From Cardiobacteriaceae bacterium TAE3-ERU3 (GTDB taxonomy: Bacteria; Pseudomonadota; Gammaproteobacteria; Cardiobacteriales; Cardiobacteriaceae): a stretch of 32,000 nucleotides of DNA. A model generated the notes under the pieces. It was not told the origin of the DNA. It saw only the letters and a list, made by a program, of their open reading frames with translations, and did no database searches. The translations under genes and the position numbers were made by a program. Below, piece after piece: positions 18,833 through 21,141 of the stretch; the stretch's first letter is position 1; the number at the start of each line of letters is the position of its first letter. Location of the stretch: the NCBI GenBank assembly GCA_019218315.1, contig JAHUUI010000001.1:137722-169721 (forward strand), written 5' to 3'.

Positions 18833-19281
18833 TTACTGGCAAGTAGAAGGCAAACGTTTTGCTTCGATAGGATTTCCGCTGGTATCAACTGTCGCAGCAG
18901 CATCTAATGTTGTACGCGCAGCAGTAACCTTACCACCGGCACAAGTCCAACCAGAAATTTGCCCTGTTGCAGTCGCACTCGGATAAAGCGTCATCTCTTT
19001 ACCACTATTAGCACCAGCATCAAATACGATGTTAATTGCACCATTATCTACACCAACTGTGACACCCTCTGGTGCGAAATACTTGCCATCCAGTTCGGAA
19101 GCAAGTTTACCAATAGCGCCTTTTGTTTTATCTACTTCATCTGAATCCGGATATTTATTTTCGCTAGAAACATAGACTCCAATATCAGTCTGCAAACCTG
19201 AAGTCGCTTTGAATGCTTCAGATGCTTGAGTACGTGCCAAGTAATCCTGATATGCAGGAAGAGCGATTGCAGCGAGGATAC
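18833..19281 (-). pseudogene. Promoterless, 5'-truncated type IV pilin cassette (silent alternative pilin 3' region, cassette B)
   Basis: From 19281 the minus-strand frame reads (S)[30 protein letters not shown]...GWTCAGG...RLPSTCQ-stop. That is a pilin lacking the leader peptide and the first ~22 codons. An in-frame TAA lies 10 codons upstream of the junction, and no SD or leader is present. The track ORF (18833..19240) begins at an internal TTG. Confidence 0.85.
19241..19281 (-). repeat. Inverted repeat IR-L (pilin N-terminal coding sequence at the head of silent cassette B)
   Basis: The reverse complement is gtatcctcgctgcAAtcgctCttccTgcatatcaggattac, matching 20639..20679 at 37/41 positions. 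The inner 13 nt (19269-19281) and outer 15 nt (19241-19255) are identical. Similarity stops abruptly at 19282. Confidence 0.9.
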
Positions 19282-19346
19282 TGTTAGAAGGAACAGTATT
19301 TGGATTTTGTTACTGGCTATCCAATAGCCTAATTTTTTAGCTGTAC

Positions 19347-20309
19347 CTACAGTGCATGCAGTTCTTTCCTGTAGGGTTGCCCACTCCTCAGTACGCCATA
19401 AGCTACAGTGAGGATCTTCCTCATCATAGCAATAACCACTTCCTTACGCCGTTTCCCATTAGCCAGTAATCGTTGTACAAAAGGTTGAAATGCCTTATGC
19501 CGACCAAAGCTCACCACTAGAGCTGGCATAAATAAAGCAGAGCGCAGATCTGCCAAGCCACTTTTTCCAATCATGGATTTACCACGTACGCTCGTACCTG
19601 ATTCATGTAATCTTGGAGCAAGCCCAGCAAAGCTCGCAACTTTTTTCGCACAAGAAAATTTCATGCCATCACCAAGATAAGTCAGTAACCATGGCAAAGT
19701 TTTCTTTCCCACCCCAGGAACTGTAAGCAGCAAATCAGCACGTGCTTTAAGTAAAGGCACTGTGTCGATAAACGTCATAATTATTTGTTCAATACTTTCA
19801 ATCTCTTGTTGCCAGTAAGCGACATTTTTTTGCGATAACTGACGAATACAGTCAGGTGCACTTTCCAAGCGGGACTGCTCACGCTGCAATTGCAAGCGAG
19901 TGTGGCGAAGCTGACGCATTAGTGCACGTAACTCATATTCCTTATCATTAGGCGGCTGCCATAAAGTTGGCTTTTCATTGCGCGCAAAGCGTGCCAAAAG
20001 CAATGCATCAAGCTTATCTGTCTTACTACGCTGAGCAATACTCGTCGCATATGCTTTGATTTGCAAAGGATTAACCACGCTAACTTGCCAACCTTTCGAT
20101 ACAGACCAATACGCAAGCTTTTCCCAATAGACGCCGGTTGCTTCCATAGTGATTTTTACTGCACTCGAAAAGTGTGATAGCCATCCCGCTAATGCACGAA
20201 AGCCTTGCGTATTGTTTGCAAACGTTTGATGATGCGCTATGCCGTTAGCAATAAACGCGGCATCAAAAGATAATTTTGCAATATCAACTCCTACATATAA
20301 AGAACACAT
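19347..20309 (-). CDS. IS110/Piv-family DEDD recombinase (transposase-like site-specific recombinase/invertase)
   Basis: 320 aa from the ATG at 20309, with GAGG SD 6 nt upstream; the track starts at TTG 20315. The N-terminal RuvC-like DEDD domain shows YVGVDIAK, MEATGVYWE and KTDKLDALLLA. The C-terminal Transposase_20-type domain shows TVPGVGKKTLPWLLTYLGD and FAGLAPRLHESGTSVRGKSMIGKSGLADLRSALFMPA. Confidence 0.9.
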   Translation of the reverse strand: MCSLYVGVDIAKLSFDAAFIANGIAHHQTFANNTQGFRALAGWLSHFSSAVKITMEATGVYWEKLAYWSVSKGWQVSVVNPLQIKAYATSIAQRSKTDKLDALLLARFARNEKPTLWQPPNDKEYELRALMRQLRHTRLQLQREQSRLESAPDCIRQLSQKNVAYWQQEIESIEQIIMTFIDTVPLLKARADLLLTVPGVGKKTLPWLLTYLGDGMKFSCAKKVASFAGLAPRLHESGTSVRGKSMIGKSGLADLRSALFMPALVVSFGRHKAFQPFVQRLLANGKRRKEVVIAMMRKILTVAYGVLRSGQPYRKELHAL

Positions 20310-20390
20310 GCTCAACCTCGCAAATTACGGGCTTCAAAGCCCAGGATACCGTCCGAGCTAGGCTCGATATTGCAGAATAAATACTGCGCT
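20310..20390 (-). ncRNA. Structured 5' leader / candidate small RNA upstream of the recombinase ORF (speculative)
   Basis: Downstream of the putative promoter, the minus strand reads ...CGAGC-cta-GCTCG ga CGGTATCCT GGGCT-ttga-AGCCC gtaatttgcGAGGttgagcATG. There are two small hairpins (plus strand 20354-20366 and 20329-20342). The linker between them contains CGGTATCCT (20343-20351), identical to pilA 20637-20645 across the repeat boundary. Confidence 0.25.
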
Positions 20391-20394
20391 AAGC

Positions 20395-20422
20395 ATTATA
20401 TCGATCATATAAAGCAACTCAA
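20395..20422 (-). promoter_or_regulatory. Candidate sigma70 promoter for the recombinase / its leader
   Basis: Minus strand: TTGAGT (plus 20417-20422), 16-nt spacer, perfect TATAAT (plus 20395-20400). The predicted start is near 20388-20390, about 80 nt upstream of the recombinase ATG. Confidence 0.4.
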
Positions 20423-20493
20423 ATCATCAAGAACTCTATGTGTATGTTGAATTATGGTTTGAACCAATTGATATTAATAAAATTAAATTAAAA

Positions 20494-20509
20494 TGGCATA
20501 CAAATAGCT
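20494..20509 (+). promoter_or_regulatory. Candidate sigma54 (RpoN) promoter of the expressed pilin gene
   Basis: TGGCATacaaaTAGCT has GG (20495-20496) and GC (20507-20508) at exact GG-N10-GC spacing, versus the consensus TGGCAC-N5-TTGC. It lies about 66 nt upstream of the pilA ATG, preceded by an AT-rich tract. Type IVa pilin genes of Pseudomonas, Moraxella and Neisseria classically use RpoN promoters. Confidence 0.55.
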
Positions 20510-20574
20510 TAGCCTGATGCCGATGACGCAAGTCGTCTTTAACTACGAAATTTAATTCTCTCAAGGAGAACACT

Positions 20575-21141
20575 ATGAAAAAACAAATGCAAAAGGGTTT
20601 CACTCTTATCGAATTGATGATCGTTATCGCGATTATCGGTATCCTCGCTGCTTTCGCTATTCCAGCATATCAGGATTACATTATCCGCACTCGTGTTTCA
20701 GAAGGTTTGAATCTAGCCGAACCAGCTAAGTTAGCTCTTTCGACTGATATTGGATCAGCTGCTGACTTAGGTGGCGTTGCTGATACATGGAATGCTCAGG
20801 CTGGTAACGCTGGTGCAACGTCTAAGTATGTTGACAGTGTTCTAATTCAAACAGCTGGTGCTGGCAATGCTACAGCTGCAGGTGATGGCACAATCACTAT
20901 CACTTATAATGCTGCTAACGTTGGTACTGCTGGAACTCTTACTTTGTCTCCATATGTACGTACAGGTACAGGCGCAGCTACTGCCTTGCAAGCGGCATTA
21001 ACCGCTACCCCACGTGTTAGTGGCGTGTTGGATTGGGGCTGTTCTTCCGATTCAAATACAGTTGCAACTGCTCAGCAGATGCCAGCGACTGGTGTAGCAG
21101 CAACCTTGCCAGCTCGCTTTGCGCCAGCATCTTGCCGTTAA
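20575..21141 (+). CDS. pilA: Type IVa (pre)pilin, currently expressed orientation (cassette A)
   Basis: 188 aa. Leader MKKQMQKG followed by [36 protein letters not shown]. The variable region is Ala/Gly/Thr-rich, and a C-terminal disulfide loop runs WGCSSDS...APASCR. AGGAG Shine-Dalgarno. Confidence 0.93.
20639..20679 (+). repeat. Inverted repeat IR-R (pilin codons 22-36 of the expressed gene)
   Basis: gtatcctcgctgcTTtcgctAttccAgcatatcaggattac matches the reverse complement of 19241..19281 at 37/41 positions. Confidence 0.9.

Follow-up and report, generated by a model that had tools for sequence, protein, structure and literature searches.

The window, which is the whole 32-kb stretch of DNA analysed here, carries an expressed prepilin gene, a leaderless pilin cassette on the opposite strand and, lying between them, a recombinase gene (Table 1). 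These three ORFs, called as a 188-aa pilin, the leaderless cassette and a 320-aa recombinase in the initial annotation, were all found as stated there, and so was the sigma54-like pilin promoter that it had placed between the two copies of an inverted repeat. The 145-aa prepilin gene downstream of the cassette, the accessory genes on both outer flanks and the guide-like element upstream of the recombinase were absent from that annotation.

Table 1. Features of the pilin locus, with positions in the window
Feature	Position	Strand	Remarks
TfpX/TfpZ (FimB)-family pilin accessory gene, end of left arm	17559..18323	-	254 aa; NCBIfam NF041437 TfpZ, 299.9 bits
Complete prepilin gene downstream of silent cassette	18314..18751	-	145 aa; Pfam N_methyl and Pilin
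Terminator-like hairpin	18772..18797	-	between cassette and 145-aa pilin gene
Leaderless pilin cassette ORF	18833..19281	-	Pfam Pilin only, no N_methyl
Silent 3' cassette portion	18833..19274	-	would supply residues 24-170 of the predicted 170-aa pilin
Silent site (S)	19272..19292	-	TTCTAACAGTATC-CT-CGC on minus strand; predicted core CT 19276-19275
Predicted invertible segment between core dinucleotides	19277..20643	.	1367 bp; based on the inverted sites and contig L001
Recombinase gene	19347..20309	-	Piv-clade DEDD/Ser recombinase; 320 aa from ATG, 322 aa from upstream TTG
Bridge-RNA donor-loop homolog	20305..20368	-	directly upstream of recombinase; covariance model R1, 69.9 bits, E 5e-16
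Sigma70-like promoter TTGAGT-16-TATAAT	20395..20422	-	10/12 matches; conserved in L001
Sigma54-like pilin promoter	20494..20509	+	sequence element TGGCATACAAATAGCT
Expressed prepilin gene	20575..21141	+	188 aa; Pfam N_methyl and Pilin
Constant pilin 5' end, inside segment	20575..20643	+	leader peptide and the residues that follow it; codons 1-21 and start of codon 22
Expressed site (E)	20628..20648	+	GCGATTATCGGTATC-CT-CGC; predicted core CT 20644-20645
TfpX/TfpZ (FimB)-family accessory gene, right arm	21319..22128	+	269 aa; NF041437, 198.3 bits, slightly below the curated cut-off of 200

Both TfpX/TfpZ genes were assigned from the family model together with their position directly downstream of a pilin gene. 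Homologs of the 269-aa accessory protein carry a precomputed Pfam FimB assignment, and the protein is 59% identical to the fimB product of the relative L174, whose pilin is 64% identical to the 188-aa pilin. The 145-aa pilin gene has a degenerate 5' site, GGTATTCTTGC, and is therefore probably not a substrate for recombination. GG-N10-GC elements equivalent to the sigma54-like promoter were found upstream of pilins in the related loci L001, L005 and L175.

The inverted repeat described in the initial annotation (41 nt, 37/41 identical, abruptly ending at its inner edge) was confirmed by alignment of 20639-20679 with 19241-19281, and it includes a perfect 13-nt block, GTATCCTCGCTGC. Inward, the two copies cease to match beyond the G of GTATCC (...ATTATCG|GTATCC versus ...TCTAACA|GTATCC); outward, a repeat search extended the repeat to 78 nt at 74% identity, as expected of homologous pilin genes. 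Within the 32 kb, GTATCCTCGC occurs only at the two site positions, a count that is not significant alone since about one occurrence is expected at one mismatch; the case for the repeat lies in its homology and context rather than in statistics. Both sites share GTATC-CT-CGCTGC. To the left of E lies the pilin constant region and to the left of S a conserved non-coding TAACA; the non-coding left half of S, TAACAGTATC, is conserved in the window, in the Logan contig L001, which comes from a relative with 90% identity, and at four silent sites of Rappaport israeli B08008 (L005, NZ_LXHZ01000028.1; Cardiobacteriaceae). E and S, here taken as 20639-20648 (+) and 19281-19272 (-), occupy the same pilin codon position as the sites of Moraxella lacunata, M. 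equi and M. macacae. A leaderless silent copy sharing a conserved 5' block is also a hallmark of pilS-type loci, and RecA-dependent recombination or gene conversion with the silent copy, as in Neisseria pilE/pilS, would make the recombinase an unrelated IS. We regard this as improbable. The homology covers just 41-78 nt and stops exactly at the recombination site, the non-coding half of which has been retained in different genera, and on the right side of the core the four mismatches persist without homogenisation. In addition, the recombinase comes from the sole clade known to invert pilin genes and is preceded by guide arms that spell the window site (see below).

Inversion between E and S was expected from the initial annotation to create an in-frame prepilin of about 170 aa. 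The computed join of 20575-20638 to 19281-18833 yielded an uninterrupted 170-aa prepilin ending ...RLPSTCQ. Along its whole length, this predicted fusion shares 61% identity with the complete pilin of L175, which heads a pilin-pilin-fimB operon. Judged from these similarities, both cassettes look functional.

The recombinase had been assigned to the IS110/Piv family, with an HMM search and an alignment against Piv and its IS110 relatives proposed as a check. These analyses bear out the assignment and place the protein in the Moraxella Piv clade. Both Pfam domains, DEDD_Tnp_IS110 and Transposase_20, are present, the NCBIfam model 'IS110 family RNA-guided transposase' scores 203 bits, and the nearest named protein is the 'pilin switch DNA invertase Piv' of M. 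equi with 49% identity. In a neighbour-joining tree, which is a distance tree without support values, the recombinases of the window and L001 join the Moraxella Piv loci, and the nine Piv-clade loci included form one clade. D9, E56, D98, D101, S237 and G238 are invariant in an alignment of 13 recombinases, and the catalytic residues align with D11/E60/D102/D105/S241 of IS621, one of the bridge-RNA recombinases of the IS110 family (Durrant 2024, PMC11208160; Hiraizumi 2024, PMC11208158), to which the window recombinase is 40% identical. Judged against its L001 ortholog, from which it differs by 79 synonymous and 33 non-synonymous codon changes, the recombinase is under purifying selection.

Directly upstream of the recombinase lies a homolog of the IS621 donor-binding loop, composed of an outer stem GCUC/GAGC, a 5' arm ACGGUAUCCU, a hairpin GGGCUUUGAAGCCC and a 3' arm GCGAGG; it has in common with the IS621 loop the stretches CGGAC-(A/G)GTATC.. 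and ..GTA(A)TTTGC(A/G)AGGTTG. The covariance model R1 gave 89 matches upstream of recombinase ORFs, all on the recombinase strand, and it recovered the bridge RNA loop of IS621 itself (L091). Covariation supports both helices among 83 distinct sequences, with 90.9% of cells paired versus 74% in shuffles and double changes in 8/8 pairs. The sigma70-like promoter sits 27 nt upstream of the element and is predicted to transcribe both the element and the recombinase gene. This promoter is complete and resident in the window, whereas that of IS621-type elements is rebuilt at the circle junction.

The 5' arm of the element has the sequence of the left half of the site plus the core, and the 3' arm corresponds to the core plus the right half in reverse complement, which is the arm logic of the published LDG/RDG rule (PMC11208160). 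In two controls, IS621 and L008, these 3'-arm columns agree with the beginning of the left end of the respective element. The window arms ACGGTATCCT and GCGAGG fit CGGTATC-CT-CGC, and the same arms accompany the site CGGTATCCT|CGC in the window, L001 and R. israeli. The site TTGGTATCCT|AGCT of M. lacunata, M. equi and the metagenome loci L092 and L095 is accompanied by the arms TTGGTATCCT and AGCTAGG, and the site TCGGTATCCT|AGC of M. macacae by TCGGTATCTT and AGCTAGG. The arms thus change with the sites: the right half-site is CGC in the window lineage (CCT|CGC, arm GCGAGG) versus AGC in Moraxella (CCT|AGC, arm GCTAGG), a covariation drawn from three types of site and roughly three variable positions. 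The Shine-Dalgarno sequence of the recombinase gene shares bases with the 3' arm GCGAGG, and the stem of the element abuts the ATG, so that in the window lineage part of the arm conservation could be translational. In Moraxella, about 55 nt separate the element from the ATG, a spacing that speaks against translation as the whole cause.

Bridge RNAs of IS621-type elements also contain a target-binding loop. Model R2 of this loop matched 36 IS-type loci and 0 of the 13 Piv-clade loci searched, all nine Piv-clade loci of the tree being without a match; in the window, the best R2 score was 4.5 bits with filters off. This result bears on whether an active IS110/IS621-type insertion sequence landed in the pilin gene and truncated it. 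The NCBIfam model names the protein an IS110 family RNA-guided transposase, the left half of the S site resembles the IS621 right end ATAACAGTAT-CT, and the cassette junction as a whole (TAACAGTATC-CT) is like an IS621-type right end (AACAGTAT-CT). Such an insertion would leave direct core copies within one interrupted target, but the cores here are inverted, each is flanked by a different pilin 3' end, and the 5' end of the pilin gene lies on the opposite strand. Moreover, the target-binding loop is absent, the exact protein has one database member recorded on a single contig, a second genus has the same gene order, and the 'right-end' half is also present at silent sites that lack any IS body. 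The window contains one copy of the element. An active insertion sequence is therefore very improbable, and a plain insertion, already disfavoured in the initial annotation, is contradicted by the inverted cores, the missing loop and the single-contig protein. Like IS621, the window locus has the same catalytic residues and a CT core; unlike it, there is no target-binding loop or mobility signature, the cores are inverted and both substrates are chromosomal pilin sites. On the sequence evidence, the locus most likely encodes a domesticated, single-loop RNA-guided invertase.

The window and the Moraxella Piv loci (tfpQ/tfpI of M. lacunata and M. bovis) have, besides recombinases of the same clade, their site in the same pilin N-terminal helix codons (..IIG|ILAA..) with the same GGTATCCT core region, a leaderless cassette that follows the recombinase directly and in the same orientation, an accessory gene in the locus, and the same single guide-like loop upstream of the recombinase. 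The accessory genes differ, being of the TfpX/TfpZ (FimB) family with one per arm in the window and TfpB in Moraxella. The topology differs as well, as had been suggested. The order in M. lacunata, M. equi and related metagenome loci is piv (+), the silent S (+) and, farther downstream, the expressed E (-), which places piv outside the invertible segment; two 3' cassettes and tfpB flip there while the promoter and constant 5' end stay in place. In the window, by contrast, the recombinase has the expressed site on its upstream side, in divergent orientation, and the silent site on its downstream side, so the cassettes stay fixed and the promoter, 5' end, recombinase and guide would flip. The classical layout, with the recombinase outside and the cassettes inside, was found neither in the window nor in R. 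israeli. This difference is a variant feature and no ground to exclude the enzyme from the Piv clade.

The layout E(-)/recombinase(+)/S(+) is common to the window and R. israeli, whose recombinase is 58% identical to that of the window. It is therefore conserved and not an accident of one genome. The R. israeli locus, for which no description was found in the literature searched, has an identical site core and identical guide arms but, unlike the window, carries extra cassettes and five sites (one E and four S), indicative of a multi-cassette shufflon in which some inversions would include the recombinase and others would not. Its recombinase ORF is split into two in the assembly, which could reflect an inactive locus or an error in sequencing.

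The 1,370 bp of contig L001 are the segment itself, corresponding to 19273-20647, and each of its two ends falls after ...GTATCCTCG, at an identical base of the site. We take these end points as the only population-level hint of flipping, although strain mixtures or repeated metagenome flanks could also cause such breaks. As a positive control, the Moraxella-like metagenome loci L092 and L095 are distinguished by inversions whose breakpoints fall at the sites. Alternatively, the locus might be a frozen relic of past Piv-type inversions or of an old IS insertion, with no switching now, the cassette a pseudogene and the recombinase idle or repurposed. Database proteins include none in which the constant N-terminus is fused to the window cassette at high identity, and the split R. 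israeli homolog indicates that decay occurs in the lineage. Such a relic is nevertheless unlikely, since the recombinase is intact and under purifying selection, the 13-nt block common to both sites is perfect, the guide arms still fit both sites, the cassette keeps an open reading frame with 61% identity to a functional pilin, and the relative's contig breaks symmetrically at the sites.

We consider it likely that the locus switches between two pilin states by means of a domesticated Piv-clade recombinase of the IS110/IS621 type, with its sites recognised through RNA. The sequence comparisons establish the anatomy, homologies, covariation and conserved layout; from these we infer that the segment flips in this strain, that the element is made as an RNA and guides the enzyme, and how many loops take part. 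Recombination at the CT cores (20644-20645 and 19276-19275) would invert 19277-20643, and the flipped cargo would comprise the sigma54-like pilin promoter, pilin codons 1-21 with the first part of codon 22, and the recombinase gene together with its sigma70-like promoter. In state A, the orientation sequenced, the pilin promoter would serve the 188-aa pilin and then tfpZ-269; in the predicted state B, it would serve the 170-aa pilin and, past the terminator, the 145-aa pilin and tfpZ-254. A transcript starting upstream of the recombinase would include the donor-loop homolog as its one internal loop, and this RNA would guide the enzyme. Because the 5' arm ACGGUAUCCU has the sequence of the left half of the site plus the core, it would pair with the bottom strand, and its pairing at S would require one G:T wobble. 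With the target-binding loop missing, two copies of one loop would have to hold both near-identical sites in the recombinase tetramer. A wider proposal, for and against which we judge the case to be evenly poised, is that all members of the Piv clade, classical Moraxella Piv included, are natural RNA-guided invertases that go back to one domestication of a bridge recombinase, with loss of the target-binding loop and retention of one donor-type loop. Their arms would be tuned, with G:T wobble, to both expressed and silent sites, and in Cardiobacteriaceae the enzyme, guide, promoter and pilin 5' end would form one flipping module.

Piv pilin switching is a textbook case, and Moraxella Piv has been studied since the 1980s. 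We found no explanation in the literature of how Piv recognises its sites, and the window locus and its relatives offer a testable answer, namely a single bridge-RNA-type loop with arms that covary with the pilin sites. The bridge-RNA papers mention Piv only as an 'invertase homologue'. IS621 itself can be programmed to invert DNA. Neither an experimental precedent for a one-loop bridge RNA nor a paper describing the inside-out topology or the guide element of the window was found in the literature. If the proposal is true, the locus would be a natural case of a transposon RNA-guided recombinase recruited for host phase variation, in which one loop is enough for inversion between two similar sites. 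This would be useful for engineering, as a minimal one-loop scaffold for programmable inversion, and the flipping unit of promoter, 5' coding end, recombinase and guide could be transferred to gene pairs that share a short 5' site.

Parts of this arrangement are known from other inversion systems. In Salmonella Hin/fljBA, the invertible segment bears the recombinase gene and a redirected promoter, as predicted for the window. Hin is a serine recombinase that works with Fis and an enhancer in an on/off transcriptional switch of one operon; unlike the switch proposed for the window, the system has no in-frame 3' coding swap and no RNA guide. In Mycoplasma pulmonis vsa and Campylobacter fetus sap, one promoter and 5' coding end are joined by inversion to silent 3' cassettes, and in sap a promoter-bearing segment flips between oppositely oriented flanking cassettes. 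These two systems differ from the window in using a tyrosine recombinase (HvsR) or RecA over long homologies; the proteins are unrelated, and there is no DEDD enzyme or guide RNA. For the organism, the switch proposed here would change the major pilin and also which accessory gene and second pilin follow the promoter.

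The pilin locus of TAE3-ERU3 holds an expressed recombination site (E), which an in-frame pilin leader precedes, and a silent site (S) at a leaderless cassette. The inverted repeat that joins them was recovered as the initial annotation had claimed, with 37 of 41 positions identical between 20639-20679 and 19241-19281, and it opens with a perfect GTATCCTCGCTGC. Its inner edge is as abrupt as described, similarity stopping within one base (...ATTATCG/GTATCC at the expressed site, ...TCTAACA/GTATCC at the silent site), and on the outward side it decays gradually (78 nt at 74% identity), as in homologous genes. 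The swap proposed there proved to be in frame, since an open reading frame for a 170-aa prepilin results when 20575-20638 is fused with the cassette, and the pilin promoter is indeed sigma54-like (TGGCATACAAATAGCT, 66 nt 5' of the pilin ATG). The recombination sites in the locus would be of the TAACAGTATCCTCGC type. The recombinase, the cassette and the TfpZ protein each match annotated TAE3-ERU3 proteins at 99-100% identity. The features of the locus are listed below.

Features of the pilin locus and the basis for each
Feature	Coordinates	Strand	Basis or remark
TfpX/TfpZ-family accessory gene, 254 aa (tfpZ-254)	17559-18323	-	ORF and family match
Complete prepilin, 145 aa	18314-18751	-	ORF and family match
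Terminator-like hairpin	18772-18797	-	hairpin prediction
Leaderless pilin cassette	18833-19281	-	Pfam Pilin present, N_methyl absent
Recombinase, 320 aa	19347-20309	-	both IS110-family Pfam domains; NCBIfam 'IS110 family RNA-guided transposase', 203 bits
Sigma70-like promoter, TTGAGT-16-TATAAT	20422-20395	-	27 nt upstream of guide-like loop
Prepilin, 188 aa	20575-21141	+	ORF and family match
Second TfpZ-family gene, 269 aa (tfpZ-269)	21319-22128	+	ORF and family match

Comparison with relatives suggests that each arm of the locus resembles a functioning pilin operon. Along its full length, the predicted 170-aa fusion shares 61% identity with a complete pilin of locus L175, which has a sigma54-like promoter and is the first gene of a pilin-pilin-fimB operon in a locus without recombinase; the flipped state would restore an L175-like order of 170-aa pilin, 145-aa pilin and tfpZ-254. 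The present 188-aa pilin shares 64% identity, and tfpZ-269 59%, with its counterpart in the pair of locus L174. The first pilin of the recombinase-free L174 already contains ATCGGTATCCTCGCAGC, so the E-type site belongs to the normal coding sequence of pilins in this lineage, and it is probably older than the recombinase. Both L174 (SRR29889425, 1-2692), where the operon lies downstream of gshA, and L175 (PDWI01059616.1, 716-2761) are pilin-pilin-fimB operons without any recombinase. In the window, the 145-aa prepilin gene lies 81 bp 3' of the silent cassette, with the terminator-like hairpin between them; no promoter of its own was seen, it overlaps the start of tfpZ-254 by 10 nt, and it may be expressed only, or mainly, in the flipped state. 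This pilin carries GGTATTCTTGC at the recombination-site position, with two mismatches to the guide arms described below, and is therefore probably not a recombination substrate.

The recombinase had been placed in the Piv-type family, and its best named relative is the 'IS110 element transposase-like pilin switch DNA invertase Piv' of Moraxella equi (49% identity). It is 58% identical to the Rappaport israeli gene and 40% identical to the IS621 transposase; genome and metagenome contig scans gave no recombinase relative above 58% identity among the matches listed, and exact-sequence look-ups returned no record. In a neighbour-joining tree, the window recombinase fell within the Piv clade. The catalytic residues D, E, D, D and S-G do not vary in alignments that include the IS621 transposase. 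Compared with its 90%-identical ortholog on the Logan contig L001, the gene differs at 79 codons synonymously and at 33 non-synonymously, and is thus under purifying selection; we consider it unlikely that the locus is a frozen relic.

To compare layouts, all GTATCCT-type sites were mapped in related loci, a site being classed as E if an in-frame pilin leader precedes it and otherwise as S. The map bears out the initial annotation's statement that Moraxella piv lies outside the invertible segment: in M. lacunata, M. equi and the metagenome loci L092, L093 and L095 the order is piv(+), S(+) at most about 50 bp downstream and E(-) further on, the L093 contig stopping past the S site. In the window, read in recombinase orientation, the order is E(-), recombinase(+), S(+), and the two sites enclose the recombinase, the promoter and the constant 5' end, which is the different topology that had been proposed. 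Comparison of orthologous loci showed that this layout recurs in R. israeli, of the same family, with three extra S sites. Therefore piv lies outside the flipping segment in Moraxella, whereas in the window and R. israeli the recombinase lies inside; by sequence and site the window locus is a Piv-clade member, but one with a different topology. As a control for the site method, one Moraxella-like three-site pilin locus was compared between two metagenome assemblies, L092 (sites at 3069, 3839, 5803) and L095 (6003, 7971, 8738), which differ by two successive inversions with breakpoints exactly at GGTATCCTAGC sites. The R. israeli locus (L005, NZ_LXHZ01000028.1, 1-6597) is a five-site pilin shufflon with one E and four S sites, all with TTAACAGTATCCTCGCAGC; its contig begins within a site, and its recombinase ORF is in two pieces (2243-2767 and 2739-3476), which reflects either an error in sequencing or a frameshift.

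The non-coding left half of the silent site, TAACAGTATC, is identical in the window, L001 and all four R. israeli S sites, and the intergenic DNA around it is unrelated among the three. Such conservation amid unrelated DNA is what a functional half-site would look like. About 110 nt 5' of the recombinase are likewise near-identical in the window and L001, with diverged DNA further upstream; the last 55 nt before the recombinase are also kept in R. israeli, and in Moraxella they are kept but lie about 55 nt from the ATG (L004, 2974-3031). The window element reads GCTC-GGA-CGGTATCCT-[GGGCTTTGAAGCCC]-GTAATTT-GCGAGG-TT-GAGC. Its 5' arm CGGTATCCT equals the left half of the E site with CT, and the reverse complement of its 3' arm GCGAGG, CCTCGC, comprises the core and right half. 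RecA-type gene conversion, as in pilS systems, would leave both the conserved non-coding half-site and the matching guide unexplained, and we regard it as improbable.

Genuine E. coli IS621 (L091) served as the homology reference. Its published bridge RNA ends, directly 5' of the transposase ATG, in the donor-binding loop (...CCGGAC-AGTATCAT-[GGACCGG..CCGGTAATCC]-GTATTTGCAAGG-TTGG), whose columns align one to one with those of the window element, and the rule relating arms to sites in the window is the one published for the bridge RNA (PMC11208160). As a positive control, the 3'-arm columns match the start of the element's own left end in IS621 (CAAG/CTTG) and in a Methylobacter IS, L008 (ATAAG/CTTAT). 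The IS621 right end ATAACAGTAT-CT resembles the silent half-site TAACAGTATC-CT, and on this likeness the silent sites appear to derive from an IS right end. The arms also vary together with the sites across three lineage groups, as tabulated here.

Recombination sites and guide arms in three lineage groups
Loci	E site	S site	5' arm	3' arm
Window, L001, R. israeli	..TCGGTATC-CT-CGC	..AACAGTATC-CT-CGC	GACGGTATCCT	GCGAGG
M. lacunata, M. equi, L092, L095	..TTGGTATC-CT-AGCT	..TTGGTATC-CT-AGCT	CTTGGTATCCT	AGCTAGG
M. macacae	..TCGGTATC-CT-AGC	..TCAGTATC-CT-AGC	GTCGGTATCTT	AGCTAGG

Beside the conserved block, E and S show one difference, G versus A, which would form a G:T wobble with the guide; in L091, the IS621 target guide ATCGGGCCT forms a like wobble with the real target, ATCAGGCCT. 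A covariance model of the donor-type loop (R1), built from eight such loops, gave 89 matches, all upstream of a recombinase gene on the recombinase strand, and the window scored 69.9 bits. Both helices covary, with 90.9% of cells paired against 74% in shuffled and 20-42% in slid partners and double changes in 8 of 8 pairs, in an alignment that was fitted to R1 and so somewhat favours structure. RNAalifold independently recovered the outer stem, internal loop and hairpin from six Piv-clade sequences; an Rfam scan gave chance-level sRNA matches only and no bridge-RNA family. In the window (20305-20320, minus strand), L001 and R. israeli, the GCGAGG arm is also the Shine-Dalgarno sequence of the recombinase and the GAGC stem abuts the ATG, so guide folding could block recombinase translation in the Cardiobacteriaceae version. 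The L091 locus itself contains a tandem partial duplication of the IS621 left end (E. coli NZ_CP024240.1, 1600-1680), comprising the first ~57 nt of the bridge RNA region and the target junction.

In the transposing relatives, a second, target-binding loop lies 60-110 nt further upstream. A model of this loop (R2), built from 14 IS-type loci, matched 36 IS-type loci, many outside its building set, and none of 13 Piv-clade loci (window, L001, L002, L004, L005, L006, L032, L083, L085 and L092-L095, of which L093 is cut at the recombinase start); with filters off, its best score near the window locus was 4.5 bits. A second guide loop within the segment was sought and rejected, the sole GTATCCT-like arm being that at 20350. 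The sigma70-like promoter lies so close to the loop that there is room for a small 5' hairpin only. IS-type relatives thus have two loops, whereas the Piv-clade loci searched most likely have the donor-type one only. The nine Piv-clade loci included in the neighbour-joining tree, none with an R2 match, formed one clade (the tree carries no support values), which suggests that domestication happened once, with loss of the target loop. An ordinary IS insertion is contradicted by this missing loop, by the inverted orientation of the cores, by the conserved synteny and by there being one copy on record, and is highly improbable; both it and pilS-type gene conversion were rejected as readings of the locus.

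The analysis establishes the anatomy, homology, covariation and conserved layout of the locus; we infer that the guide is transcribed and required, that two copies act together and that TAE3-ERU3 switches. The recombinase would be expressed from its own promoter within the segment, and the 5' part of its transcript would fold into a one-loop guide. Two recombinase dimers, each with one copy of the loop, would pair with the E and S sites, and strand exchange at the CT cores would flip 19277-20643. The predicted junction of the constant end with the 170-aa cassette is ...ATTATCGGTATC-CT-CGCTGCAATCGC, and the reciprocal one is ...TCTAACAGTATC-CT-CGCTGCTTTCGC. Sequence right of the core would remain with its cassette, which would explain the persistence of the four mismatches of the repeat. 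Because there would always be one E-type and one S-type left half, the reaction would be reversible, and the enzyme would meet equivalent substrates in either state. The locus thereby offers a mechanistic lead for the whole Piv clade.

Contig L001 (SRR24308737, 1370 bp) corresponds to the flipping segment alone. It starts CGAGGATACTGTTAG... and finishes ...ATTATCGGTATCCTCG, stopping two bases beyond the predicted core at either end. Logan contigs are presumably the product of de Bruijn assembly at k=31, in which a contig terminates where the following base is ambiguous; both ends halting at the same site base would be expected if each end joins the same two cassettes in the sample. As a sign of natural switching these ends are supportive rather than decisive, and a strain mixture could mimic them. 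When flanking contigs were sought in SRR24308737 through the TfpZ protein, the closest matches came from other samples, and the retrieved locus L173 begins within a pilin gene rather than at a site. Apart from a 135-aa fragment annotated in the same genome, a protein search with the predicted fusion pilin found only full-length pilins with no more than 61% identity.

Inversion of Moraxella pilins by Piv is classical. The bridge RNAs of IS110 elements were described in 2024 (PMC11208160, PMC11208158). The bridge-RNA and seekRNA papers present Piv only as an invertase homolog or on a tree beside IS492/IS621, a single sentence of a 2026 preprint puts 'PIV invertases' together with bridge-RNA enzymes, and Piv is absent from a 2026 review, a 2026 directionality paper and a systematic survey of programmed inversions. 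The literature searched, which covered few subscription journals, yielded no description of a Piv guide element or target-loop loss, nor of a Piv locus whose flipping segment carries the recombinase and the promoter. As far as that literature extends, the topology and the guide element lead would be new, Piv inversion and IS110 bridge RNAs being known already.

Piv-clade recombinases (46-47% identity) that lack the target loop also occur away from pilin genes, in L085-L090 (ENA/Logan, ~5895-7041), where the neighbours are T2SS genes, an H-NS gene and a 315-aa ORF, and apparently in L094 (4853-5978). The L085 guide arms, TCGGTATCTT and AGCTAGG, predict a Moraxella-type pilin site; none was found within 6 kb in L085 or L086 or in the L094 site scan. 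The L085-L090 recombinases (P0007-type), which have neither a pilin nor a matching site within 6 kb of them, were dropped as a second example; these and the L094 enzyme may be orphans or serve a distant locus in trans. In M. macacae (L006, 760-5739), eight pilin sites lie upstream of piv and none downstream, one expressed and seven silent with duplicated flanks, a cassette array much larger than the two-cassette locus of M. lacunata.
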